From the IMG/VR virus record IMGVR_UViG_3300021124_000017, positions 1 to 34,980 of that record: a DNA stretch of 34,980 nt, one strand, 5' to 3'. The position numbers and the translations under genes were made by a program. This DNA is from a virus. Lineage: Duplodnaviria; Caudoviricetes. Shown here piece by piece: positions 1-33,426 of this stretch. Each line of letters begins with the position of its first letter. Within the stretch, counting starts at the first letter, position 1. Below the pieces are notes generated by a model that was given only the letters and a program-made list of their open reading frames with translations, made no database searches and was not told the DNA's origin.

Positions 1-99
1 AAGACAATTGCCATCTTATTTCACTGCCAAGTCAATCTCGTAAAAAAGCCTGTTCACTTCTGCAACAGCCTCCTCATACGACTTTAGTTTACCATGCTG
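1..99. repeat. Terminal direct repeat, copy 1 (99 bp; circular assembly overlap)
   Basis: Bases 1-99 are identical to 34882-34980 and overlap the 3' end of a CDS, so this is more likely a k-mer overlap than a physical terminal repeat. Confidence 0.95.
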
Positions 100-552
100 C
101 TGGTGCAACTTTGATAGAACTCCCCGAATCTTATGAGACATGGCGTCTAAGGCTACAAGATTTTTTTGATCAACACTTGAATTAGTTTGTAGCATTTTAG
201 TTAATACAGCCATATTTTCGGCTAATGTTTTATTAGCAGAAGCGTAATCAATATTGGCTTGTGCTAACATTTTATTGCTTTCTACTAAAGAAGATAAGAT
301 TGACGATGTAGTAGAATCTACTACATTATTTTCATGCTTTATACTACTAATAACCGAAACGGTTTTATTGGATTTTTCCAACATTTCCGCAAAATCTTTT
401 AGTTTTAAGTATATTGTTTTATTACCACCTTTTGCAATAATCTGATCCAAATATTTTTCAGATAACCCTATTTCTTGCTCAATAAGCCTCCTGCTAAAAC
501 CTTTATTTTTTAGAAATTTTAATAGTGATTGTATATCTTCTTTATGATTCAT
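16..552 (-). CDS. Putative immunity repressor (N-terminal XRE-like HTH, C-terminal coiled coil)
   Basis: N-terminal SRRLIEQEIGLSEKYLDQII is HTH-like; divergent from a small HTH gene, giving a cI/cro-type switch layout; no S24 peptidase domain visible. Confidence 0.6.
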   Translation of the reverse strand: MNHKEDIQSLLKFLKNKGFSRRLIEQEIGLSEKYLDQIIAKGGNKTIYLKLKDFAEMLEKSNKTVSVISSIKHENNVVDSTTSSILSSLVESNKMLAQANIDYASANKTLAENMAVLTKMLQTNSSVDQKNLVALDAMSHKIRGVLSKLHQQHGKLKSYEEAVAEVNRLFYEIDLAVK

Positions 553-8904: not shown

Positions 8905-9417
8905 TTATGCTTGAAACTTAATAGCATCAAGTCTGTTAATCCAACCCTTATAAAATTTATTTTGTACCGGATTAGATGCCACTATATTATTATAGCGCAC
9001 CAATCTTTTATTATAAAGCTGTTTGTATAATTCTTTGCCATCGAAAGCCATCATTGCATTGAATGTATTATTACCAAACAACCCATCATCAGTAACACTT
9101 ACAATCTGTTGTATGTACTTTGTAATTACATTACCTTGATTTAATCTACTATCTACCAAAAACATAGCAAGAGATTGATTAGGTATTTCATCGGCTCTGT
9201 AATAATCCCAATACAATTTTTTAAGAATAATACCCGCTTCATCTATTGTCATATTTTTAACTGCATCACAAGTAAGATTAGGATTGTTGTAATACTTTTT
9301 TAAATCATCAAGCGTTAAACCTACTTTGGTGCATCCACCTACATCTACTGCATCATTTTCATAAACAACACCCTCGAGTTTTTGCTCTATCGGAAAGTAT
9401 AAATTAAAGTCAGCCAT
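8905..9417 (-). CDS. Endolysin, glycoside hydrolase family 108 with C-terminal PG-binding domain
   Basis: EGVVYENDAVDVGGCTKVG catalytic region, DGLFGNNT, and QNKFYKGWINRL C-terminus. Confidence 0.88.
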   Translation of the reverse strand: MADFNLYFPIEQKLEGVVYENDAVDVGGCTKVGLTLDDLKKYYNNPNLTCDAVKNMTIDEAGIILKKLYWDYYRADEIPNQSLAMFLVDSRLNQGNVITKYIQQIVSVTDDGLFGNNTFNAMMAFDGKELYKQLYNKRLVRYNNIVASNPVQNKFYKGWINRLDAIKFQA

Positions 9418-9450
9418 ATTATTTAATCAACTTTTTAAGTTCATTTGCTT

Positions 9451-10047
9451 TTAATGCGTTGTAAATTTCTTCGCTGTACTTTTTACATAAGCACCGTAAA
9501 CAACTGCAATCAAACTAATCCCCGCAATGATTAATAAAACAGTATTGCTCTTGCTTTCTTTTTTCTCATCCTTATTCTTTACCGTTTCTTTTACATGGGT
9601 GCTATCTGTGCTTTTAAGTACATTAGTTTGTACGTTATTGTGTACACTATCACTCACATTCTTTGCGCTTATTTCTATTGAGGATATGGGTTTATGTGCC
9701 AAATCAACTAAGTGAGAGATAAAGTCCGTTGCAATAGAGTAGTGTTGTGTGGTATCATTCCCATTTTGGGAACTTGTCGGTATTTCCGATTTGTTGGTAT
9801 CAAAAGTTATCTTAACATCCACATCACCCGCTTTTAATACTTCGCCCCAATCAATGACTTTTTGTGTTTCTTCTTTCTTAATAACCGTTGTACTATCAAT
9901 GCTTTTCTTTTCTACTGTTAATGATTTTTGTACCGTTCTGCATCCGGTAATAGAAAAGAATAATCCTAACAAGAAAACAGCAACAATAAATATCACTACA
10001 ATCTTTAAAAATATTTGAATGATGGTATCTTGTGTTTCTTGCTTCAT
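9451..10047 (-). CDS. Lipoprotein with C-terminal TM, candidate unimolecular spanin
   Basis: Hydrophobic N-terminus ending ITG-C, hydrophilic middle, C-terminal TM VLLIIAGISLIAVVYGAYV; adjacent to the endolysin. Confidence 0.6.
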   Translation of the reverse strand: MKQETQDTIIQIFLKIVVIFIVAVFLLGLFFSITGCRTVQKSLTVEKKSIDSTTVIKKEETQKVIDWGEVLKAGDVDVKITFDTNKSEIPTSSQNGNDTTQHYSIATDFISHLVDLAHKPISSIEISAKNVSDSVHNNVQTNVLKSTDSTHVKETVKNKDEKKESKSNTVLLIIAGISLIAVVYGAYVKSTAKKFTTH

Positions 10048-10361
10048 AATCTAAGTAGTTTTGAATAAAACAATTCAAACCACACCGACCACCAAATGAA
10101 CATTAAAGGAATATCAATCCATCCTGTAATTGTCTTATAGTAATATATGGATAAGAAAAGAAAAAACAAGTAAGCATACTTCACGATGTGCCAAGCATCT
10201 AACTCCACAATACCAAAAAACTTCTTATGATAATTCCATGAATAAGCAGGATTCCAAAAGTATTTATTCCAATTATGGAAAACTGAAATTTCATAATGGT
10301 CTTTTAAGGTGTCCATTATTGCATCGCAGATAGCTGCTAATGCTAAGAATAATACCCACAT
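10044..10361 (-). CDS. Membrane protein in lysis region
   Basis: Trp/Phe-rich with about 3 hydrophobic segments. Confidence 0.7.
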   Translation of the reverse strand: MWVLFLALAAICDAIMDTLKDHYEISVFHNWNKYFWNPAYSWNYHKKFFGIVELDAWHIVKYAYLFFLFLSIYYYKTITGWIDIPLMFIWWSVWFELFYSKLLRL

Positions 10362-10374
10362 AGGAAAAAGTTTA

Positions 10375-10392
10375 AGCCCCGATGAAGGGGCT
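10375..10392 (-). terminator. Hairpin, possibly a weak terminator within the lysis cluster
   Basis: AGCCCC-6nt-GGGGCT followed on the - strand by TAAACTTTTT. Confidence 0.4.
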
Positions 10393-10396
10393 GTGA

Positions 10397-10546
10397 TTAC
10401 TTAGGTTGCTGCTTTGATTTCAACCATCCGAAGATTAATTGAAATACGCTGTTTGCTTTTACAGCAGGGATATTAGCGAGTAACTCACTAACTCCGAAAA
10501 GAACTGCTAAAATAACAGCCGAATTGTCTGTGATAAACTGAATCAT
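10397..10546 (-). CDS. Small holin-like membrane protein (49 aa, not in ORF track)
   Basis: MIQFITDNSAVILAVLFGVSELLANIPAVKANSVFQLIFGWLKSKQQPK; TM segment plus basic tail, in the lysis cluster. Confidence 0.7.
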   Translation of the reverse strand: MIQFITDNSAVILAVLFGVSELLANIPAVKANSVFQLIFGWLKSKQQPK

Positions 10547-10570
10547 AATTATTATTGTTTGATTAAAAAA

Positions 10571-10816
10571 TTAATGTTCTTTTTTTTTAAGTTTTGGTTT
10601 GATATAATGGTGAAACCAATACTTCATAAACTCCGCTAACAAAGCGAAAACCATTGCACTCATACAAGCAAAAGCAAATCGGATAATAGTTATTTCAGGA
10701 TTTATTTCACCAAATCCATCCAAAAAATTCAGCGTTAATAATCCACTTCCACCACCAATCAATGCGCTGTCGGGTTTTATTCCACCACTAAAAACTTGGT
10801 TAAAAAAATCTCTCAT
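10571..10816 (-). CDS. Putative holin or membrane protein
   Basis: Two hydrophobic segments and a basic C-terminus; first gene of the lysis cluster. Confidence 0.55.
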   Translation of the reverse strand: MRDFFNQVFSGGIKPDSALIGGGSGLLTLNFLDGFGEINPEITIIRFAFACMSAMVFALLAEFMKYWFHHYIKPKLKKKEH

Positions 10817-10842: not shown

Positions 10843-11103
10843 TTATTTTTTTTCTTTAGGTTTATCTGCAACTACTTTTTCTCTCGGCACTAACTTAGCG
10901 TTCTGATACAAGGGTGCTAAGATGTTTGATAATATCAACTGACCTGACTTTGTTTGACCGTTGATATTTTCTTGAATTAATTGTACTACATTCTTAAAAC
11001 TTGTACTATCCATTTCAATCCTTACAATCAAACTATCCTGCTTCTGACTAAAACTTTTTGCGCTTAAAAAAGCGACTAATAAAATCATTATGATTTTTTT
11101 CAT
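10843..11103 (-). CDS. Small signal-peptide protein of the fibre module
   Basis: N-terminus MKKIIMILLVAFLSAKSFS|Q. Confidence 0.75.
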   Translation of the reverse strand: MKKIIMILLVAFLSAKSFSQKQDSLIVRIEMDSTSFKNVVQLIQENINGQTKSGQLILSNILAPLYQNAKLVPREKVVADKPKEKK

Positions 11104-11462
11104 TGTTTAAAATTTATGGTTTTTAAATATTTATTTCGAGTGTAATAGATTAACCAAATTGCTGTTGCATCCCATGCCTTATAATCATCGCCTGTTAAAT
11201 CAAAGTGTCTTACTGCGATGAGATTTTTATTTACATCAAGTAAGTACCATTCAACAGTACATTTATTACTAAGGTTGTCGTTTAGTGTCTTGCAGCCTAA
11301 CCAACCCGCACCTGCTGTATCTGTTAAGTTCCATTGAATAGTATCAATTTTAGCTACTGATAATTCGTGAAAAGAAGTATCAAGTACAGGATGATTGGTT
11401 GTGTCCTGACTGAATGATTTTGTACCTACTAAAAGAAAGATGATAAAGATTATTTTTTTCAT
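11100..11462 (-). CDS. Signal-peptide protein of the fibre module
   Basis: N-terminus MKKIIFIIFLLVGTKSFS|Q; two Cys in the mature part. Confidence 0.75.
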   Translation of the reverse strand: MKKIIFIIFLLVGTKSFSQDTTNHPVLDTSFHELSVAKIDTIQWNLTDTAGAGWLGCKTLNDNLSNKCTVEWYLLDVNKNLIAVRHFDLTGDDYKAWDATAIWLIYYTRNKYLKTINFKQ

Positions 11463-11464
11463 AA

Positions 11465-12397
11465 TTAATTATTGATATAGTTTTGAGTTGAAGATGTTGA
11501 AGGGCTTATTCCTATAATAGTACATCCTGTCACTGTACCGCCACCAGGAGCAGTACCACTACTTATATTTACTGTATGACTACCATTACTTAATGTTCCT
11601 GATACTGTCCACGTATCTCCGTAATTATCTTCAAATTGAAGTGTGATTGTTACATTGGTATCAACATTTACTGTTGTTGTATTTCCTGAATTGCTATAAC
11701 TACTTACTGTTGTTGTTGAAGAATTTGAACCTGTGCCGTAACTGTCAATATGTATATAAACATCTGTTAATCCACCGCTGCAATTAGTAAGATTACTCAC
11801 TACTGCACTACCACTAAGATTAAACCATTGACCATCTTTAAAGAAATAATTTCCTGTTCCTGCGCCTCCTGTACCATAAGCCATTGGAGTTATACCACAA
11901 ATATCAGCATATAATGTAGTTCCATTTCCAAAAGTACCATTGTAGTAAAAAGTATATGTAGAACCTCCCGAATGAGTACAAGCATCGGAAGACGAAGTCC
12001 ATCCCCAAACATAACCAGGACCGTCACTACCTAAATAATAAATTATTCCTGTATGTAATTGTGCCGTACCGCTTGCAGTTAATGAGCGTTTTGTAACAAA
12101 TGAAGTTCCGTAGGGAAGTGCTAAATAATAGCTATTTCCTTGGTCTATACAAATTAAAGAAGCTGCGCCATTTTTAGTTACAAATGTATTATCACTTGGA
12201 ATAGTTGCAATAGCAACAAAATCACCATGATAAACTGCTGACTTCAATACATTATTAGTTACAAAATCAGTAGGATTAAGAGCAGCGAAACTATCGCTGT
12301 ACACTATTTTTGCAGGTGCAACGTTTGGTTGCTTGCTCCCGCAAAAAACAACCAACAATGAAAGACAGACGGTTATTGATAAGATTATTTTTCTCAT
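11465..12397 (-). CDS. Exported (possibly lipidated) Gly/Ser/Thr-rich beta protein, candidate receptor-binding subunit
   Basis: N-terminus MRKIILSITVCLSLLVVFC; five further Cys; directly downstream of the tail fibre. Confidence 0.65.
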   Translation of the reverse strand: MRKIILSITVCLSLLVVFCGSKQPNVAPAKIVYSDSFAALNPTDFVTNNVLKSAVYHGDFVAIATIPSDNTFVTKNGAASLICIDQGNSYYLALPYGTSFVTKRSLTASGTAQLHTGIIYYLGSDGPGYVWGWTSSSDACTHSGGSTYTFYYNGTFGNGTTLYADICGITPMAYGTGGAGTGNYFFKDGQWFNLSGSAVVSNLTNCSGGLTDVYIHIDSYGTGSNSSTTTVSSYSNSGNTTTVNVDTNVTITLQFEDNYGDTWTVSGTLSNGSHTVNISSGTAPGGGTVTGCTIIGISPSTSSTQNYINN

Positions 12398-15366
12398 TTC
12401 TGCGTTGTTTTAATTGCGTTCAAAGTCATTTTATTAAGTATCTCTAATTGCTTTACTGCTTTTTCCAATGCCTTTACTCTTTCTTTTAGTTCGTTAATTT
12501 CCATGTTCTGTAAATCGTCATACATGATAGCCTTAGTGCCTTGCTCATTCGTTAATACTAAATCGGGATAATACTTTTCAACTTGCTGTGCAATGTTTCC
12601 ATATCTCAATCTGTTTGGGTTGTCTTTCATGTTGTATTGAATAAAATCAATGCTGTCAAGAATTGAAATGTTAGGATTGTAAACGATGTTTGTTTTTAGC
12701 CGAATATCTGAAGTACCTGCGCCACCGCTTGCTGTTAAGTAGCCTGCAACATTCATGGTACTATTTGCATACACAGCCCCTGCAATACCTACACCACCGC
12801 TTACTACTAATGCACCTGTTGTATAAGATGATGATGCTGTTGTTCCGCTTAATGTTGCACTTGTACCACTTAATGCACCTGTAAGTGTTCCGCCAGTTAA
12901 AGGCAAATATGTACTTGCAGCAGATGATGTTGTAAGGTAAGTGCTGTTATCATAGCTTATTGTTCCACTGCTCATTTTTAAAAAGCCTGTACCGTTAGAT
13001 GAACTTATCACACCACTTGAATTGTTCGTGAGAACTCCTGCGGTTGCGAAAGTAGAACCAACAATAAAGGTTAAATTCGTTGAAGCACTTAATGTAATAC
13101 CATTTGAGTATGATTGTATTCTTAAATTTCTTAAAGCACCACTTCCTGTAACCATTGATTCCGTTCCAATAATTGATTCATAAGAACCATTTCCTTGAAA
13201 TGCTAAACCCGCACCATTTGTAGTTCCTGTCCCGCCATTTATTATTGGATATACTTGACCTGAACCATTACCAAAGACATTATTAGCACCTGTAAAAGTA
13301 TTATTCACATTCACATAAGCCCCATTAGTAACCGTTCCTGCATTACCATCAATTGAAATACCTGTTAATGATTGAGAAGCACTTGAACGGTTTAAAGCGA
13401 TTGAAGTTGTTCCTAAATAAAATGATGATGATGGTGTAGTAATGGCACTCCAACTTAAATTACCACTTCCATCTGTACTTAATCCATAACCATTAGTTCC
13501 TGCTGTATTAGGTAGGGTAAGGGTATATGTTCCTGCTGCTGATTGAGTAGCTAATGTTACTGTACCGCTTGTTGCACCTTTAAAATATAAATTAGCACTT
13601 GCATCAAACCCAATTCTGTCTGTACCATTTAATCTCCCCATAAATATTGGTGCTGATTGGTCGCCATTGTCTGCTATTAAAGCTGCTGATGCGTAAGTAG
13701 GGGCTGTATTTCTTAATGTAAAATAACCACCTATTTGTATTGGAGAAGTGTTTGTATTTCTACCCATTCCTAATACGCCTATATTTGTAGCCGAATTTTT
13801 GCCTTGTACAGCTTTGCCCATCACTCCAATATTTAAACTTCCCGCACCTGCTTCCATATTACCACCTAAGTTAAGACCTGTATTAGTACCGTATGAATAA
13901 GCATTTAGCCCCAAGTTTCCGAGTGGATTTACTATTGCAGTTCCCCATTTCAAATCATTACCTGTTCCACTACCGTTTAAATCACTTTCAAATCCAACAG
14001 ACGATGAACTTCCTGAATAACCTGAATAATAAGTATATAACCCTATATTTGCTTGACTTGAATTACTTGATGTTGAATTATTGAAATAACTACCGATTGT
14101 TGTCCCCGACATACTTGTAGGCAATGTTGCATTTACTCTAATTGCATTGTTAGATGTAGATGTACTTACAGTAAAAGTTGTTGGTGCAGTCCAAGTATTT
14201 GAGTTAGCAAGGTTAATTCCCCATGTACTTGCTGATGAACCATTGTAAGAAGATGCACCTGAACTATTTGTTAATGTAGCATCAAATGAATGTGTAGCAA
14301 GATTAGAACCTAATGATACACCGCTTATAGTTGAATTGGCTAAGTAACTATTTGAAATAGCAGTACCATTCCAAACACCTGTTGTTATTGTTCCTAAAGT
14401 GGTTGTATTGGTTGTTCCTGTGTATTTATTTAATTGATTAAGTACATTATTTTTTGTTGATAATGCTGTACTATCTACTGTTACACTTCCTGTTGCTGAA
14501 CCATTGTAAGACAAAGTAGATATACCATATCCATTCGATAATGCGTTTAAATTGCTTCCTAAACTTACCCCCGATATTGTACTGTTCGCTAAATCACTAT
14601 TTGTAATTTTAGTTGTTGTTCTACGATAAGGAGATAACATAGAAGATGTATCGGAATAACCAACTGCACTTAAATTACTTCTCGCTGTGGTAATATTCGT
14701 TACATCGGCTAAGTTGTTACCCGCTAATAAATAAGCCCCTGTCGGCTGTGCATAAGAACGCACATAAGAACGTGCAGCAGCACTATCCGAACCCATTAAA
14801 ATATTGCCATCAATTAAAAACTGATTGCCATTTACCCATGTGTTTCTACTCGCATTGAAATTCCATAAACTTAACTGCCCACTTGCGCCTAATTGTAATA
14901 AATGCGCATAAGTAGGAGATCCGCCACCTGTTGTTAAAGCAAAGTTTACACCGCTTCCTACACTATTATTTGCTGTTCCTAATCCTGTCAGATTATTAGC
15001 CACAATATTATCAGAAATCAAAGCCTGTGTACTCCATGTGCCACTACTTCCGGCCACCGGAGAACCGAACTTATTTTGTCCGGTAAATGTTTGATTTTTC
15101 GCTAAGAACGCTAATCGGGTGCTGTCTAATTGCAATCCGCTTGTAATAGTGTAATAAGTACCATTACCTGAATACAACTGCCCACCTACAAAAGCAAATC
15201 CTGTCTTTCGGGAAGTCGTATCAGTAGCGATAGTTAATTCATTACTGAGCGTTACCGTTCCACCTGTGGAAGAACTATGTACCCTTCCATCTGCACCGAT
15301 ATTCACTTGTGCAAATAATTCACAAGTTGAAAACAGAAAGAAAAATATTAAAAAGATTTTTTTCAT
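12394..15366 (-). CDS. Tail fibre with C-terminal intramolecular chaperone (peptidase S74) and N-terminal signal peptide
   Basis: G/S/T/N-rich shaft, YLPLTGGTLTG motif, SDIRLKTNI...GNIAQQVEKYYPDLV...coiled coil; starts MKKIFLIFFFLFSTCELFA|Q. Confidence 0.88.
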   Translation of the reverse strand: MKKIFLIFFFLFSTCELFAQVNIGADGRVHSSSTGGTVTLSNELTIATDTTSRKTGFAFVGGQLYSGNGTYYTITSGLQLDSTRLAFLAKNQTFTGQNKFGSPVAGSSGTWSTQALISDNIVANNLTGLGTANNSVGSGVNFALTTGGGSPTYAHLLQLGASGQLSLWNFNASRNTWVNGNQFLIDGNILMGSDSAAARSYVRSYAQPTGAYLLAGNNLADVTNITTARSNLSAVGYSDTSSMLSPYRRTTTKITNSDLANSTISGVSLGSNLNALSNGYGISTLSYNGSATGSVTVDSTALSTKNNVLNQLNKYTGTTNTTTLGTITTGVWNGTAISNSYLANSTISGVSLGSNLATHSFDATLTNSSGASSYNGSSASTWGINLANSNTWTAPTTFTVSTSTSNNAIRVNATLPTSMSGTTIGSYFNNSTSSNSSQANIGLYTYYSGYSGSSSSVGFESDLNGSGTGNDLKWGTAIVNPLGNLGLNAYSYGTNTGLNLGGNMEAGAGSLNIGVMGKAVQGKNSATNIGVLGMGRNTNTSPIQIGGYFTLRNTAPTYASAALIADNGDQSAPIFMGRLNGTDRIGFDASANLYFKGATSGTVTLATQSAAGTYTLTLPNTAGTNGYGLSTDGSGNLSWSAITTPSSSFYLGTTSIALNRSSASQSLTGISIDGNAGTVTNGAYVNVNNTFTGANNVFGNGSGQVYPIINGGTGTTNGAGLAFQGNGSYESIIGTESMVTGSGALRNLRIQSYSNGITLSASTNLTFIVGSTFATAGVLTNNSSGVISSSNGTGFLKMSSGTISYDNSTYLTTSSAASTYLPLTGGTLTGALSGTSATLSGTTASSSYTTGALVVSGGVGIAGAVYANSTMNVAGYLTASGGAGTSDIRLKTNIVYNPNISILDSIDFIQYNMKDNPNRLRYGNIAQQVEKYYPDLVLTNEQGTKAIMYDDLQNMEINELKERVKALEKAVKQLEILNKMTLNAIKTTQK

Positions 15367-15367
15367 A

Positions 15368-16267
15368 TTAGTTAAAACTTACTGTGTTTGTTGATGTTGA
15401 TCCAAAAGCATTATTACTGACTGTGATGTAACCGCTAAAAGCACCACCACTCGCATTCGTAAAACTTTTCGATGTATTTAAAGTAAATGCAGATGTACTT
15501 GGAAAACCGTTTACACTTACACTTGTTACCGTTGATGTCGTTACAAAAAATAAATATTTATCACTGCCTAATTGAGCCAGTGTATTAGTAAGCGATGAAC
15601 TGTTACCTGAATTATCTTGGTAAACTGCCGCTAATATTTCTGCATTGGAAGGAGTGGAAGTCGCTGCCCATCCTAAATAACGCTTATCATAAACAGTAAA
15701 TGAAGTAGAAGCTGTTGCCGTTTTACTATCCGTTGTTGTTACAACATTGTTATACGTTGTATTGCTATTATAAGTAACTGTAACGCTCTGTGTTCCGCTT
15801 ACACTACTTCCCGCACTTGGCTGAGAAAAACTTTCGCTTGTTCCCGCAACGACAATAGAACTTAAAGGATTGGTAGCATTCACACCTGTTCCCGCAGCTT
15901 GTCGCCCTGCTGACCAACTTAATGAAACCGTAAATGTTCCCGATGCGTGTCTTTCATACGAATATCCACCGCTTAAAGATGCTGTCGGATTTTGGGTTTG
16001 GATTTGAACGTAATACTGATTTAAAAAAGAAGTATCAGCACCACTTAATTTTTTCCAATAGCCTTTATATTTTCCGTAAAAAGTGCTGTCCTGTGGCCTT
16101 AATACTAATTGCGCTGAATCAGCAGAAGAACTGGTTAGCGTATCTCGTACAGGTATTCCTAATCCCGCAGCAAATCGTTGTTTTTGCCCGGTGATTAACC
16201 ATGATTGCGCTTTACCTCCCAATGAGATAAATAAAGCGATGATTAAAAGTATTTTTATTCTATTCAT
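15368..16267 (-). CDS. Tail-associated beta-rich protein with signal peptide
   Basis: MNRIKILLIIALFISLGGKA|Q; Ser/Thr-rich Ig-like composition. Confidence 0.7.
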   Translation of the reverse strand: MNRIKILLIIALFISLGGKAQSWLITGQKQRFAAGLGIPVRDTLTSSSADSAQLVLRPQDSTFYGKYKGYWKKLSGADTSFLNQYYVQIQTQNPTASLSGGYSYERHASGTFTVSLSWSAGRQAAGTGVNATNPLSSIVVAGTSESFSQPSAGSSVSGTQSVTVTYNSNTTYNNVVTTTDSKTATASTSFTVYDKRYLGWAATSTPSNAEILAAVYQDNSGNSSSLTNTLAQLGSDKYLFFVTTSTVTSVSVNGFPSTSAFTLNTSKSFTNASGGAFSGYITVSNNAFGSTSTNTVSFN

Positions 16268-17201
16268 ATACTATCCTTATTGATTCCCCAACGGTTAATA
16301 AATTGCCGCTTGGGAAAGTGATTGTTCCTGTTGTATTATCAAATTTGATTTGCGCTCCGCTTGGAGTACCGCTTGTAATAATAGATTGTGCAATACCGTT
16401 TCTGCTAAATGAAATCATTGTTTTATCTTCTAATGAAGTATTGATATACGTTGCTCCGCTTGTAGAAGAAATGAATTGATAAACATTGATTGTTTTAGAA
16501 TAAATAAAACGTACAAATTCACCCGCTACTAAGGGATTATCAGAAGAAAAAACAAATGTGCCGGTGCTTGAATTGTATAAAACTTGTGATCCTGTCGGAG
16601 TACCGCTTGTTATGATTGTTCCTGTTTCAATACCTCCTCGTGTTACAATCAAAGGGATAATTCCTACTAACAAAGGATTGGTAACGCTTTCGCCACCGGT
16701 AGCAGTGTATTCAATCGCTATTACTGATGTAGGATTCACAATCAATACTCCTGTTGTTGGAGGAGTTATCGGAGTACCGCTTGTTGTTCTTGTTACCGGG
16801 CCTGTTACTTGTGCTGATAAATCAAAAACAGAAGCATCGTTGTAACTTCTTTTTAAACTTAAAGAAGTTAGTAAAATATTACCTGAATATAATACCGAAC
16901 CACCATCACCATTTGCCACAAATTGAAACGGCAAAGAACCACTATCATTACCGCTAAACTCATCAAAAATGTTATCAGCCGTAAAAAATGATGAATAATT
17001 ATAAGACTGTAACCCACTAACAGAAATATTAGCCGTTATCTTTCCTTTTATAAATTCCCTCCATTTACCGCTTGATGATGATGAGGCTTCTAATACTTCT
17101 CTTTGTTGATCTAAAGAAATATCTCTCCCTGTGGCTATTGGAACATAGACACCTGACTTTTGCACCATCAACAAAAAACTTTTTCCCTTTACTACACTCA
17201 C
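16260..17201 (-). CDS. Tail-tube-like domain fused to two repeated beta domains (distal tail protein)
   Basis: First ~140 aa resemble TP901-1-type tail tube (ISLDQQREVLEASS..GKWREFIKG..ISVSGL..YSGNILLTSL); C-terminal repeats IITSGTP.G.Q.....TG. Confidence 0.65.
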   Translation of the reverse strand: MSVVKGKSFLLMVQKSGVYVPIATGRDISLDQQREVLEASSSSSGKWREFIKGKITANISVSGLQSYNYSSFFTADNIFDEFSGNDSGSLPFQFVANGDGGSVLYSGNILLTSLSLKRSYNDASVFDLSAQVTGPVTRTTSGTPITPPTTGVLIVNPTSVIAIEYTATGGESVTNPLLVGIIPLIVTRGGIETGTIITSGTPTGSQVLYNSSTGTFVFSSDNPLVAGEFVRFIYSKTINVYQFISSTSGATYINTSLEDKTMISFSRNGIAQSIITSGTPSGAQIKFDNTTGTITFPSGNLLTVGESIRIVYE

Positions 17202-19552
17202 GAGTATAAATAATTAAATTCGTTATCAAAACTTGTTGGATCGAATGTTTCACCACTATTCCACAATTCCTCTAATGTTCCATTCATTGTTTCATTAGCT
17301 ATATCAAACTCACATTGCCCTAAAATGAAATTCAGGCCGCTTAATTCATCTACTTCAAACACATTTCCTACACCAAAGCCCACACCTTTTAAATCGCAAT
17401 CCACTTTTGTTCTAAGCGCATCCGTTAAAAACATTTTTTCTACTGTTTGCACAAATCCAAAAGAAGGAGCGAAAGCGTAGTAATAATTAATGATTAGTTG
17501 GTAGCCACTTGGCCCGATAATACCCGATAAATCAGCCAATCCCAAAGAGGCAAATGTGAGAACAGTCGTTCCTGCGGGTACATCAAAAGTGTAACCACTT
17601 ACAGGAGTTCCTGCGTATTTTATCGTAACATTACATTTTCTGATAGTAGGATTTGTTGAAGTAATGCCGGTAGTTACCAAACTTAAATTTTCAGGAGGCA
17701 TACTCCAATAATTCTTCCAAGCTGCTGTTTTAGTTGTGCCTCCCACGAGTAAAGCGCCATTGATAGAAAATACAGGCGAATCTGAATAAGTTAATTGATT
17801 GCTTATGTTTTTTCTGATGGATGCGTTCTGTATAGATGATTTATTATAATGCCCTGTTATTTTGGTGCTTTGGTTAATGTAATAATCCATCGTAATACTT
17901 AGGTTTTTTACATAGCACGTTGTCGCAGTTGCACCGTTAAAATTAAAACCGTACAATCTTATTTTTAAAATGCCATCTACCGGGAAAGCAGGAAAAATCT
18001 TGTTTACACTATTCGATGGAGCCGTAATCAATCCGCTTAAAGAAAAAGTATTGTAATTGTTATTGGTAGGCGACCACACAGAAGCACTAAAAAACTCATA
18101 TATCTTCCCGTCTTCATGTGAAGTGTAAGGGCCATTCCATCTGAAATAATTATAAGAACCACCTACTAAAGCCAATTCATAGAACTTTGTCGGATCTGCT
18201 GCTGATTGTAGATTAAATGATACACAAAAACTTGCATCTATATTGCCCTGCATACAGCAATCAGCACTAAAATCCATCCTTGAATTTTGGCTGACTATAA
18301 TATCATTAAACTGAATATTTTTATAATCAGTATCGCCATGACTATTTGTAAAATAAGCCTGATCTAAAGGCATATAAATAAATCTATCTACCTCTAAATT
18401 TGTTCTTGTATCGCTTACTTTTCTGATGTAAGAGATATAAGAAGGGCCATTAAAAGTCCAATCGGGTAAAAGATAATCTTCATATTTGTATTTAACACCG
18501 TTAATAGTAGCGTAAGAAGTTGCTACCAAAGAGCCTAATGTCATCAAATCCATGTTTAAAATCAGCTTTTGTGGTTGCTGATAATTAAACTGATTGTTTA
18601 CATAGCTGTTAGGTCGTATAAAATACCTCGTTTGTGAAGCATTGATAAACTTAACCGACTTAGAAGAACCGATATTTATCAAACTTAAAGAAGGTGCTAC
18701 ACTTGGCGAATTAAATGCACCGGTACTCGCATCCATCTGATATTGTGTGCCGGGAGGATTGTTTGAAAAGTCTTTTAATTCAACCCATCTAACTATGTTC
18801 CATTGACCGTTATTCTGAAATATGGTACAATTCCAATCGGCTAAAAGACTTTGTAAAACCGTATAACAGTCTTTCACTATATCCGATAGTAATACCGGAT
18901 TAGCGCTATTCTTTACAAGCCCTGCATCTGTTTCAGTCAGCAGATACATTCTTGGATCAACGTAAGCCTGTGCAAAAGGATCATTGGTATTCGTTGAAGT
19001 CCTGTCGTTCATACCTACCTCGAACATATTTAAGTAATTGTTCGTAGGTAACAATAATCCTGTTCTGTATAAGCAATAATTTAAAACATCTAAAAGTTTT
19101 ATCGTTCCATTACTTCCTCCTCCGTAATAAATAATGCTTCCTGTTAAATCTGTAAAAGCTACATCCTTTAATAACCCCAATCCATCATTGGCTTTTAAGT
19201 TAATAACGGTAGGAGTGCTAAGCAAAGCCTCTCTGCAATCATCCATCACTAAAAATCCACTCCACTCTAAATTAGAGTTTAAATAATAATCTACTCGCCA
19301 AACATTATCGCTATTGGCTTCAAAAGTTGATAGAGGAGTAGCACCTTGATTGTAAAATGAAATATCCGCTTCGCTGCCACGAATGGGATCCGTAGCGTAA
19401 TAATCACCCGATTTGTAAGAGATTACAATGGGTTGCGCAGTTCCTTTTAATTGAGTGATAGAACCACTATAACCCTTTTGTAAAAGATTAATTAGTCCGG
19501 CATTATCGGAAAGTGTTTTAAAACTAATTTGATATACTATGCCGTAAGACAA
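17198..19552 (-). CDS. Tail tip/hub protein
   Basis: 784 aa directly after the tape measure; WSGFL, LKANDGLGLLKD and IFQNNGQWNI motifs resemble Bacteroidota siphophage tail-tip proteins; TTG start. Confidence 0.7.
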   Translation of the reverse strand: MSYGIVYQISFKTLSDNAGLINLLQKGYSGSITQLKGTAQPIVISYKSGDYYATDPIRGSEADISFYNQGATPLSTFEANSDNVWRVDYYLNSNLEWSGFLVMDDCREALLSTPTVINLKANDGLGLLKDVAFTDLTGSIIYYGGGSNGTIKLLDVLNYCLYRTGLLLPTNNYLNMFEVGMNDRTSTNTNDPFAQAYVDPRMYLLTETDAGLVKNSANPVLLSDIVKDCYTVLQSLLADWNCTIFQNNGQWNIVRWVELKDFSNNPPGTQYQMDASTGAFNSPSVAPSLSLINIGSSKSVKFINASQTRYFIRPNSYVNNQFNYQQPQKLILNMDLMTLGSLVATSYATINGVKYKYEDYLLPDWTFNGPSYISYIRKVSDTRTNLEVDRFIYMPLDQAYFTNSHGDTDYKNIQFNDIIVSQNSRMDFSADCCMQGNIDASFCVSFNLQSAADPTKFYELALVGGSYNYFRWNGPYTSHEDGKIYEFFSASVWSPTNNNYNTFSLSGLITAPSNSVNKIFPAFPVDGILKIRLYGFNFNGATATTCYVKNLSITMDYYINQSTKITGHYNKSSIQNASIRKNISNQLTYSDSPVFSINGALLVGGTTKTAAWKNYWSMPPENLSLVTTGITSTNPTIRKCNVTIKYAGTPVSGYTFDVPAGTTVLTFASLGLADLSGIIGPSGYQLIINYYYAFAPSFGFVQTVEKMFLTDALRTKVDCDLKGVGFGVGNVFEVDELSGLNFILGQCEFDIANETMNGTLEELWNSGETFDPTSFDNEFNYLYS

Positions 19553-26730: not shown

Positions 26731-26784
26731 CGAATTTAATTATTTTCAAGATAATTAAAAAATTTACTTTTACACAATTGTTAG
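26731..26784 (-). promoter_or_regulatory. Late promoter B with 17-bp upstream motif
   Basis: TTTTACACAATTGTTAG at 26768-26784; TAAATTCG (-) at 26731-26738. Confidence 0.7.
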
Positions 26785-27803
26785 TTTAATAATCTCTTTA
26801 TCGATTCAATCCTTTTAGTATTAACATCATCCATCGAGTAATAAGTCTTTACCCACTCATACAACTTTTCTCCATCTTCTTTTATCTTTTCAGGATGATT
26901 GATGTAAAACATGATGTATTCTAACCAATCGCTTTCTTTTTTCACCCACTTCACAGGAGGATTGTTGTCCGTATAGGTAGGCATATAACTAACAATCGCA
27001 GGGAGTTTCTTTGTTCCCAATTCAAGTAACTTTAAATTACTCTTGCACCGGTTAAATTCATTATCTACCAAAGGCACTAACCCAACATCGCCATCTTTAT
27101 ACAAATTCATGTATTCAGGAGTAAGCAACTGATAAACCCTTTTGTATGTTTCCCAATTAGGCCGCTGTCCTGAATAAAGTGCTTCTGCCTTATCCCAATA
27201 ATCTTTGTACTTTGGATTATCTGAATATCCTGCCATTACCATCTGTCCGATACTTTTAAACTTTTCGTTTTTTCTTAATACCCGACAAGTATTCTCAATC
27301 AGTAATAAATCTTTGTAGTGCGTTGTGCCACCGGCATAAATAAACCGTATTTTTTCACTTGGGTTTTTACTTTCTTTAAATTGGTCGTAACCGAGTGGAA
27401 TAGAGTTAGGGATAATATCAATGTTGGTATTAAAAGTTAGTAATACTTTTTTTAATCTTTCATTTGTTACCCAAACACAATCTGAAATAGAAACATTGTA
27501 TAATTGATTTTCTGTTACTTTGTTTTTTTGATAGTCTGCAAATGCTCTATGAGTATGATCTAAAAAAGGGCTATCATCAAAATCATAAATCAATTTGATT
27601 TTATAAAAATCACAAATTTGTCGTACTTCGCTTCGAGAGTTACCAATATCACGAGAGATTATCATTACATCAGCCCATGCCATAACTTCGGGATCCACTT
27701 TCTGTAAAAACTTAATATTGCCTTTAATTAAACTAAAAGGCAGCTTTAAACGATGGTAATGTACTCCTGTAACTAATTCAGGGAAGGGAATGATGATATT
27801 CAA
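26781..27803 (-). CDS. Glycosyltransferase (GT-B, GT4-like)
   Basis: YHRLKLP, IYDFDD, IIPNSI, YAGGTTH..DL and VPLVDNEFNRCKSNLKLLE motifs. Confidence 0.88.
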   Translation of the reverse strand: MNIIIPFPELVTGVHYHRLKLPFSLIKGNIKFLQKVDPEVMAWADVMIISRDIGNSRSEVRQICDFYKIKLIYDFDDSPFLDHTHRAFADYQKNKVTENQLYNVSISDCVWVTNERLKKVLLTFNTNIDIIPNSIPLGYDQFKESKNPSEKIRFIYAGGTTHYKDLLLIENTCRVLRKNEKFKSIGQMVMAGYSDNPKYKDYWDKAEALYSGQRPNWETYKRVYQLLTPEYMNLYKDGDVGLVPLVDNEFNRCKSNLKLLELGTKKLPAIVSYMPTYTDNNPPVKWVKKESDWLEYIMFYINHPEKIKEDGEKLYEWVKTYYSMDDVNTKRIESIKRLLN

Positions 27804-28150: not shown

Positions 28151-28435
28151 CTAATTTAAGTGCTTAATAATATCTTCGGCTGTAATAGTAGGTATGTGCT
28201 TTGTAATCTTTACCGCATCGGGATTAACACCCCATCCGCTTGTGCCTTGATTGGTGAGTAAAATATTTTTCTGCTTAAAAATATTATGTCGGCTCGATAC
28301 TAATTCAAGCAAACTATCTATCTCGTAAGATGTATCAACGTAAACATTATTATTCTTTGCTAACTTCTGCAATGCGGGTGCAATGCCTAAAAAATCACCA
28401 ATGAGAGATGGGCAATTCTTAATTAGAATGTTCAT
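28151..28435 (-). pseudogene. Internally deleted GT9-like glycosyltransferase remnant (open ORF, 94 aa)
   Basis: N-terminus MNILI..SLIGDFLGIAPALQKL and C-terminus ITAEDII resemble the two ends of GT9 enzymes, which are normally ~300 aa. Confidence 0.45.
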
Positions 28436-32638: not shown

Positions 32639-33007
32639 TTATTGTTTTGAAATGAATTTCATAATATCTCCTTTGGGTATTCTGATAGAAATAAGTGCTT
32701 CGATAAGTTTATCGATGGTAGTTTCTTGTTGGGATAGTATCTTTTCGAGAACGGCTTTAATATCTTCGGGGATGGCTTGTAAGTTACCCTCACCGAGAAG
32801 AATGTATAAAGGATTGATGAAAGGATAGTTTTTAATAAGACTGGCCACAAAAACAGCTTTCAGGTCGGTCTTAGTTTTCTTTCTTATCATGGAAACATAG
32901 GTTTCACTCATGCCTATTTGCTGAGAAAGGGCTTTACCGGTTGTTTGTTCTTTGGCTACAATGAAATCAAAGGCTTCTAAAAACCTTTGTTTAATTTGAT
33001 CTTCCAT
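32639..33007 (-). CDS. XRE/CI-like HTH protein
   Basis: KALSQQIGMSETYVSMIR HTH and INPLYILLGEG motif typical of phage repressor N-domains. Confidence 0.75.
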   Translation of the reverse strand: MEDQIKQRFLEAFDFIVAKEQTTGKALSQQIGMSETYVSMIRKKTKTDLKAVFVASLIKNYPFINPLYILLGEGNLQAIPEDIKAVLEKILSQQETTIDKLIEALISIRIPKGDIMKFISKQ

Positions 33008-33426
33008 TATCTAAAATTAAGAGGTATTTCTGTAATTTTTGTATTCTCAATCACGAATAAATGATAATCGTAAGAGTTGGAACCTGTATAACCATTCATT
33101 GCTTGAGGTAAAGAACTTCTAAACCGAGCAATAAAAGGGCTTACAATTTTAGAGTTAAAAATTTGACTACTTCCTAATGGATCAACAACTTTAATTTGCA
33201 TACCGGTAATAGGTGATTGGAATAATGTATCTATTGTTACATCAACAGTCCTGTATTTTTGTAATTGATTCCATAAGTTATTAAAAATAGCCGTATCGTG
33301 AAAATCAGCTTGGCTGATACGAATACTATCTGATTTGTAGAGATAAGTTTTAGAAGGTAATGACGCAGGGCCAGTGGTTTTATTACAAGCTGCGAATACA
33401 ATCGCTAAAAATAATAAGTATTTCAT
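33007..33426 (-). CDS. Lipoprotein (candidate superinfection exclusion or lysogenic conversion)
   Basis: MKYLLFLAIVFAA-C lipobox; coupled to the integrase gene. Confidence 0.7.
   Translation of the reverse strand: MKYLLFLAIVFAACNKTTGPASLPSKTYLYKSDSIRISQADFHDTAIFNNLWNQLQKYRTVDVTIDTLFQSPITGMQIKVVDPLGSSQIFNSKIVSPFIARFRSSLPQAMNGYTGSNSYDYHLFVIENTKITEIPLNFR

Follow-up and report, generated by a model that had tools for sequence, protein, structure and literature searches.

Five predicted exported proteins occupy the tail-fibre slot of a temperate phage of a probable Bacteroidota host

The stretch analysed here (the window) is a complete virus record of 34,980 bases with terminal repeats, IMGVR_UViG_3300021124_000017. 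It encodes an integrase, terminase, portal, prohead protease, neck genes, tube protein and GH108 endolysin. As an integrase and a tube gene are present and family searches of the window's open reading frames (ORFs) detected no sheath gene, its gene content is that of a temperate long-tailed phage (siphophage). The host is probably a Bacteroidota bacterium, because relatives of the window genes occur in Chitinophaga, Chitinophagales, Flavobacteriia and Pelobium records. An earlier note on this DNA had pointed to five consecutive, coupled ORFs between the tail-tip and lysis genes that begin with secretion leaders. We confirmed these ORFs on the minus strand, with the coordinates and N-termini quoted there. 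They and their neighbours are as follows (aa, amino acids).

15368..16267, minus strand: 299-aa leader-bearing protein, leader at residues 1-20
12394..15366, minus strand: 990-aa tail fibre, leader at residues 1-19, Gln20
12553..12711, minus strand: Peptidase_S74 domain of the fibre (residues 886-938, E 1.2e-9), starting with the SDxxxK motif
11465..12397, minus strand: 310-aa leader-bearing protein without Gln at +1, leader end VFC/G
11100..11462, minus strand: 120-aa protein with leader and Gln
10843..11103, minus strand: 86-aa protein with leader and Gln, and with two O-glycosylation sequons
16260..17201, minus strand: 313-aa leaderless second tube-fold protein (tube fold at residues 2-143; two small beta domains at about 160-236 and 237-313)
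17198..19552, minus strand: 784-aa tail-tip hub without a leader, a homologue of Cellulophaga phi18:1 gp59, phi10:1 gp088, Flavobacterium 11b gp43 and freshwater siphovirus hubs
8905..10816, minus strand: lysis region directly downstream of the five genes (small membrane proteins of 81, 49 and 105 aa; a 198-aa spanin-like protein; GH108 endolysin)

The five genes overlap or abut the upstream 313-aa tail gene and one another, with an 8-nt overlap at the 313-aa gene, then a 1-nt gap, a 4-nt overlap, a 2-nt gap and a 4-nt overlap. There is no space for a promoter of their own. Leaders were called with our own heuristic (a basic n-region followed by a 9-residue hydrophobic core). Six of the 52 window ORFs were positive, namely all five neighbours, as the earlier note had described, and a lipoprotein-like ORF at 33007-33426. 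None of 1022 internal windows, used as a control, was positive. The heuristic found no leader on the capsid, portal, connector, neck, tube, tape-measure, hub and tube-like proteins, and family searches of the window ORFs revealed no fibre gene besides the 990-aa gene; the earlier note was right on both counts. It was also right about Gln after the predicted cleavage site, since a small residue at -1 and Gln at +1 were present in four of the five proteins, the exception being the 310-aa protein. According to the available part of PMC5837995, this pair is the mark of cleaved Bacteroidota substrates of signal peptidase I (SPase I), with a mean of 71% of substrates carrying it. The window proteins have the same leader anatomy as these Sec/SPase I substrates, although the available text describes this Q-rule for host proteins and here it is predicted only.

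The leaders were retained in homologues, a check that the earlier note had proposed and that came out in its favour. Of the 120 homologues listed for the 299-aa protein (129 matches in all), 102 had a leader and 101 of these had Gln, while the first 70 mature residues varied freely. A profile search with this family gave 3672 clusters at E <= 0.001, and 98 of the 114 new ones listed carried a leader. By eye, most of the remaining 16 seemed to be fragments, to start at a shifted position or to fall just short of the heuristic. For residues 20-300 of the fibre, leader and Gln were present in 27 of 33 homologues, and four leaderless ones shared shaft segments only. As the leaders are kept while the mature N-terminus varies, these comparisons indicate that the leaders are maintained by selection. 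From this evidence we regard export of the five-protein kit as very probable.

We also surveyed the genomic slot with a profile of the 313-aa family, taking the best 80 of 243 viral loci. These loci encode homologues of the 784-aa hub, with 61 ORFs of the collected set matching at E < 0.001. The next gene was visible in 78 of the 80 loci. It was nearly always a leaderless long fibre, preceded in three loci by an inserted gene of 175-179 aa, and it bore a leader once (L085, a fibre). Leaderless proteins are also found in this slot in the cultured phages 11b, phi18:1 and phi12:1, which have the same hub. Judged by gene order, the five genes occupy the long-tail-fibre slot. Because they combine this position with host-type secretion leaders, the kit is likely the fibre kit of the phage. 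The leaderless long fibres of freshwater Bacteroidota-type siphoviruses (L028-L107) share with the window a homologous hub and tube-like gene, S74 fibres and related small partners. However, these fibres, 11b gp45/46 and phi18:1 gp60-62 differ from the window in having no leaders, depleted sequons and no gene with two immunoglobulin-like (Ig-like) domains.

Cultured Cellulophaga phages provided a precedent. The structural status of their proteins, from tandem mass spectrometry (MS/MS), was taken from GenBank annotation. In phi10:1 (KC821618), the hub gp088 is followed by a second tube-like gene (gp089), the small leaderless gp090, gp091-094 and a leader-bearing pectate lyase. All four of gp091-094 have a leader and Gln and are annotated as structural from MS/MS; the pectate lyase is not so annotated. 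The hub gp088 matched the window hub (phmmer E 3.6e-8), and the order of hub, second tube-like gene and cassette is the same as in the window. Phage phi10:1 belongs to Assiduviridae and has tube-family genes, the homologous hub and no sheath within the stretch examined; its particle is presumably siphovirus-shaped. In phi19:1 (KC821607), gp101-104 have four leaders, three of them with Gln, and are annotated as MS/MS structural proteins. For phi18:3 (KC821620) gp085-087, the leaders, Gln at +1 and MS/MS annotation were confirmed. Thus these three phages, like the window, have Sec-type leaders mostly with Gln at +1 on consecutive genes ahead of the lysis genes. The leaders are not mentioned in the GenBank annotations examined. 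Unlike the window, the leader-bearing Cellulophaga proteins include no two-Ig protein, give no S74 match with our own profile and have few sequons. A putative virion role together with export is well supported by the leaders, the fibre-slot position and the MS/MS-identified slot equivalents, and to this extent the interpretation in the earlier note stood, apart from its disulfide argument, which is taken up below.

The 990-aa fibre consists of a mosaic shaft and a C-terminal S74 autocleaving chaperone. Its clear matches in cultured phages were S74 ends alone, of proteins mostly annotated as tail fibres. The S74-chaperoned T5 L-shaped fibre and K1F endosialidase likewise have a C-terminal Peptidase_S74 domain with SDxxxK. 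These two and the T2/S16-type gp37-gp38 fibres are assembled in the cytoplasm. A profile of the N-domains of 11 leader-bearing fibres matched phi18:1 gp60 and gp61 (E 1e-11 and 2e-13 among 16 proteins), which are MS/MS virion proteins and leaderless.

The exported state seemed to be reflected in sequons. The general O-glycosylation motif of Bacteroidota is D-[ST]-[AILVMT], as reviewed in the accessible part of PMC11611037. Twelve such sequons were present in the five mature window proteins compared with 6.2 expected (Poisson P 0.024), none of them in the 310-aa protein, whereas the window hub and tube-like protein had none against 4.1 expected. The 18 leader-bearing fibres contained 92 sequons (54 expected) and the 52 leaderless fibres 118 (227 expected), counts that come from related sequences and are not independent. 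The kit is therefore likely to be O-glycosylated, with a sequon excess like that of Bacteroidota O-glycoproteins, although the available text of PMC11611037 describes these among host proteins and the modification is predicted from sequons here. The earlier note had instead cited Cys residues that could form disulfides. This argument is weak, for 1-3 Cys are also present in the leaderless proteins that correspond to the 310-aa and 120-aa proteins, and the cytoplasmic 784-aa hub holds 11; sequons mark export better than Cys content. The 198-aa spanin-like protein (9451-10047, minus strand) has five sequons against 1.1 expected. Its sequence has an N-terminal hydrophobic segment with a Cys and a second, C-terminal hydrophobic segment, from which a spanin role is predicted, and its sequon count is an internal check suggesting that exported proteins of this phage accumulate the motif.

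The 299-aa protein has, after its leader, a small variable N-domain with three sequons and two predicted beta-sandwich (Ig-like) domains at residues 89-299. A structure model (mean pLDDT, the predicted local distance difference test score, 87.8) showed the small N-domain and the two beta-sandwich domains. A fold search with residues 89-194 returned generic Ig-like matches (best Z 8.5, root-mean-square deviation (rmsd) 3.1, 90 aligned residues). Across 22 distinct loci of the two-Ig family, including the window, the leader was present in 21, and the following gene had leader and Gln in all 21 loci where it was visible. Their gene content, assessed by eye, looks like that of siphoviruses, Mu/P2-like myoviruses and crAss-like podoviruses, and one locus is a chromosomal cluster. 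No cultured-phage match was found for the 299-aa protein. These counts suggest that the two-Ig family appears in exported form only, and the protein is a candidate adaptor or proximal piece of the fibre.

Partner proteins follow the fibre gene. In T2/S16-type phages, a gp37 fibre carries the gp38 tip adhesin. Here too a separate gene with a candidate tip product follows the fibre, but the 310-aa protein had no match to the gp38 family in Pfam or PHROG. A two-sequence profile of its N-domain gave, as top non-seed matches, three leaderless genes that follow S74 fibres (E 6e-6 to 1e-4). No match was obtained with a profile built to connect its Cys-bearing middle to leaderless tip domains, and an Atlas feature search gave no usable match for the 120-aa and 310-aa proteins. 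A gene of the 310-aa type and an S74 fibre occur together in the window and in L015, and both are lost in a sister phage (two independent cases). The 310-aa protein is a candidate fibre-tip adhesin. It may be a lipoprotein processed by SPase II rather than SPase I, since the FCG at its leader end is conserved in L015, the sole full-length homologue among the collected loci. The 120-aa protein was the best non-seed match of a leaderless post-fibre family of about 100-115 aa (E 0.002 among 1472 ORFs; phmmer 5e-5), and a first, mixed-family profile was not significant. It is a candidate fibre assembly factor. The 86-aa protein had no match in two comparisons, one with a leaderless helical family of 47 aa and one with a profile from five further helical proteins that bear leaders; short helical leader-bearing genes occupy its place in other cassettes. 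In L085, a 126-aa leader-bearing gene matched the leaderless 47-aa family (E 0.003). From these matches, fibre and partner proteins appear to bear leaders together, as would be expected if they meet in one compartment.

Possible docking sites were sought at the tail tip. The 784-aa hub had no sequence match in the PDB, and no cultured-phage match was found for the 313-aa protein. The tail-tube fold of the latter (residues 2-143) matched the Sf11 tail (Z 11.3, rmsd 3.9, 136 aligned). One of its small beta domains resembled a 195-residue KHP30 tail chain, which we take to be a podovirus adaptor (Z 7.7, rmsd 2.6, 74 aligned, rank 50), a likeness of two folds at Z under 8 and a lead only. In most such podoviruses the adaptor's beta-dock domain carries fibres, according to the available part of PMC13730344. 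None of 120 homologues of the small-beta-domain region had a leader. We regard the 313-aa protein as a candidate fibre-docking ring. The idea of a dock specific to exported fibres was rejected: the next gene was leader-bearing in 1 of 78 loci, and among 13 cassettes a profile found the domain upstream in two clear cases (L008, L023) and one weak case (L014). The small beta domain (16260-16790, minus strand) is fused elsewhere to terminator-like or neck-like N-termini, as seen by eye in P0161, P0189, P0192, P0204 and P0211. The domain may be a mobile module that provides docking on various virion parts.

Taken together, we consider it probable that the kit is exported, cleaved, likely O-glycosylated, trimerised with S74 guidance, capped at the tip by the 310-aa protein and docked through the 299-aa protein at lysis. 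The proteins would be expressed from the late operon, exported by Sec and cleaved by SPase I, leaving N-terminal Gln (pyroglutamate). They would be held in the periplasm until lysis, because no type IX sorting domain was detected. There the 990-aa fibre would trimerise and cleave itself under S74 guidance, and host O-glycosylation would act mainly near the N-termini. The 310-aa protein would cap the tip as an adhesin. The 120- and 86-aa proteins would bear leaders because they must share the compartment of the fibre. The two-Ig protein would then attach the N-terminal end of the fibre to the virion, where the small beta domains of the 313-aa tube-like ring are the most likely site. This docking would take place on rupture of the inner membrane by the holin, or shortly after lysis. 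The docking partner and the timing of docking are the least certain of these steps.

Several observations weigh against this scheme. The phage is uncultured and known from its genome sequence. The five window proteins and the cultured leader-bearing proteins are weakly similar (best E 0.002 among 65), and the two-Ig profile gave no match among the latter; as the mature sequences are so weakly similar, the cultured precedent rests on position and leader. The cultured Cellulophaga examples show no excess of sequons, with 0-3 per protein, and MS/MS of purified phage may include co-purifying free protein. The window fibre does not have the N-domain part that matches phi18:1 gp60/61, and searching in the opposite direction for the 310-aa protein's N-domain gave a weak result (E 0.56 among 1472 ORFs). 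The cassette also occurs in myovirus- and podovirus-type phages, which is hard to fit with one fixed docking site. In the Mu-like phage L120 (7578-11083), the two-Ig gene and a leader-bearing fibre lie between capsid-like and sheath-like genes, and this fibre may be a head fibre. In one phage, represented by L009 (8709-14018) and L109 (6709-11876), the cassette is the first part of an operon that diverges from the early genes, and no tail gene lies upstream of it. Finally, L026 is a chromosomal cluster without phage genes.

Some of these points would also be explained if the kit were exported and never entered the virion. It would then act as a receptor-blocking decoy or as an adhesin, either freed as a fibre at lysis or displayed on the lysogen, and the virion would bind through the cytoplasmic hub. 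Such a role fits a cassette that is independent of tail type and moves within genomes, the leaderless fibre-like genes that L013 and L015 carry besides, and the Prolixibacteraceae chromosomal cluster L026 with the same pair of Ig domain and S74 gene. It also has a model in the Bdellovibrio bacteriovorus MAT proteins, signal-peptide S74 fibres on the cell surface, which are described in the accessible part of PMC10769870 as chromosomal and cell-displayed, with a conserved domain of about 130 aa, rich in beta structure, after the leader. Like the window fibre, they combine a signal peptide, a trimeric-fibre body and S74 with mosaic tips, and in the sources available they are the closest described exported S74 fibres, although cellular. 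However, the window genes overlap a phage tail operon in a complete virus record, with no intergenic room for a promoter. There was no match to a type IX C-terminal sorting domain of type A or B (Pfam at E <= 0.01; NCBIfam at E <= 0.1) and no autotransporter domain in any of the five proteins. No other fibre gene exists in the window, and in the three cultured phages checked the MS/MS virion proteins include leader-bearing equivalents from this slot. We therefore regard a role outside the virion as unlikely. The words "the receptor-binding apparatus" in the earlier note may still overstate the case, since the 784-aa hub could bind a receptor and two myovirus-type relatives keep leaderless fibre-like genes adjoining the cassette.

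Alternatively, the leaders might be membrane anchors, cleaved slowly or not at all, which keep the fibres on the inner membrane until tails pick them up before lysis. The Cys at the leader end of the 310-aa protein (FCG in the window and L015) could be lipidated, and in principle the product of a single S74 fibre gene could fold either inside or outside the inner membrane. However, a basic N-terminus ahead of a hydrophobic core places the mature part outside, and the sequon excess points to the periplasm. In addition, 101 of the 102 leader-bearing 299-aa homologues have the small residue followed by Gln, the SPase I signature given in the available text of PMC5837995. Membrane-anchored fibres seem quite improbable on these grounds. 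That the leaders are relics or mis-called starts, with the proteins made from downstream starts and assembled in the cytoplasm, is hardly credible: there is an in-frame GTG directly after Gln20 of the fibre, but GTG stood at that codon in 4 of 20 fibres and a conserved second start was rejected (a possibility the earlier note had wanted checked), the 120-aa gene has no alternative start within its first 50 codons, the start codons are coupled to upstream stops, and the leaders are retained across hundreds of divergent homologues.

Part of the kit is exchanged between close relatives.

10850..14683, minus strand: exchangeable segment, 3.8 kb here, with a 2.2 kb substitute in the sister phage L002/L008

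The flanks in the sister phage are 98.5% and 96.3% identical to the window. Its substitute encodes a different fibre tip, which lacks S74, along with a leader-bearing protein of 323 aa and a short ORF that is lipoprotein-like. Host-range cassettes swap in this manner. LamG (lectin-type) domains were present on some distal cassette members (2 of 24 proteins scanned). The leaderless fibre-like genes of L013 and L015 were recognised by position and by eye and had no Pfam match. The kit is portable and may be accessory, like side fibres, in which case late and incomplete attachment would be tolerable. L026 (260-20339, from a Prolixibacteraceae metagenome-assembled genome) encodes four exported proteins, three of them 2066, 1293 and 267 aa long and one longer than 3000 aa. 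An Ig domain of the 299-aa family is followed there by an S74 gene, in the same order as in the phages, and the cluster is a possible cellular fibre system. We propose tentatively, and with more doubt than belief, that a portable fibre system of the export-and-plug-in kind is common to Bacteroidota phages of all three tail types. It would have as its basis the export-only two-Ig adaptor, which would also belong to chromosomal fibre clusters of the hosts. Its fibres would be capped and glycosylated by the host periplasmic machinery, arming would be completed between holin and spanin action, and the host-binding gear would carry the glycan of the last host.

Other features of the window were also recorded. 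In the lysis region, a 49-aa hydrophobic ORF (10397-10546, minus strand), shorter than the usual length cut-off, is retained by the sister phage and is a possible holin. A 340-aa glycosyltransferase (26781-27803, minus strand; phrog_7162, E 6e-48) lies within the head operon directly ahead of the prohead protease gene and could, from its family match, modify virion proteins or the host surface. Nearby, a 94-aa ORF (28151-28435, minus strand) without a match in family searches has ends that, by eye, resemble the two termini of a glycosyltransferase of the heptosyltransferase type, as though an internal part had been deleted. The lipoprotein-like ORF (139 aa; 33007-33426, minus strand) directly follows the integrase. 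Its leader ends in AAC, it has three O-glycosylation sequons, and it is a candidate gene for lysogenic conversion or superinfection exclusion. Of two repressor-like helix-turn-helix genes, each with a weak match to phrog_4779, one lies at the immunity switch (16-552, minus strand) and the other behind the integrase and lipoprotein genes (32639-33007, minus strand).

Tailed phages are taught to build all parts of the particle in the cytoplasm. A literature search, mostly without subscription journals, found no description of exported tailed-phage fibres, including in the accessible parts of PMC12014285 and PMC5723332. The fibre structure is of a known kind, and the proposed export route is not. 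What the window contributes is a temperate siphovirus example for which a cultured phage of like gene order can serve as model, together with a direct contrast to leaderless relatives and an apparently export-only two-Ig family. The export question can be tested now in the cultured phages phi10:1 and phi19:1. Signal-peptide phage genes beside lysis genes should not be taken for morons by default. If the proposed route is true, these phages would have a second assembly compartment, with final maturation tied to the timing of lysis. Host signal peptidase, glutaminyl cyclase and O-glycosylation could modify a determinant of host range, and progeny from hosts mutated in those pathways could adsorb poorly.

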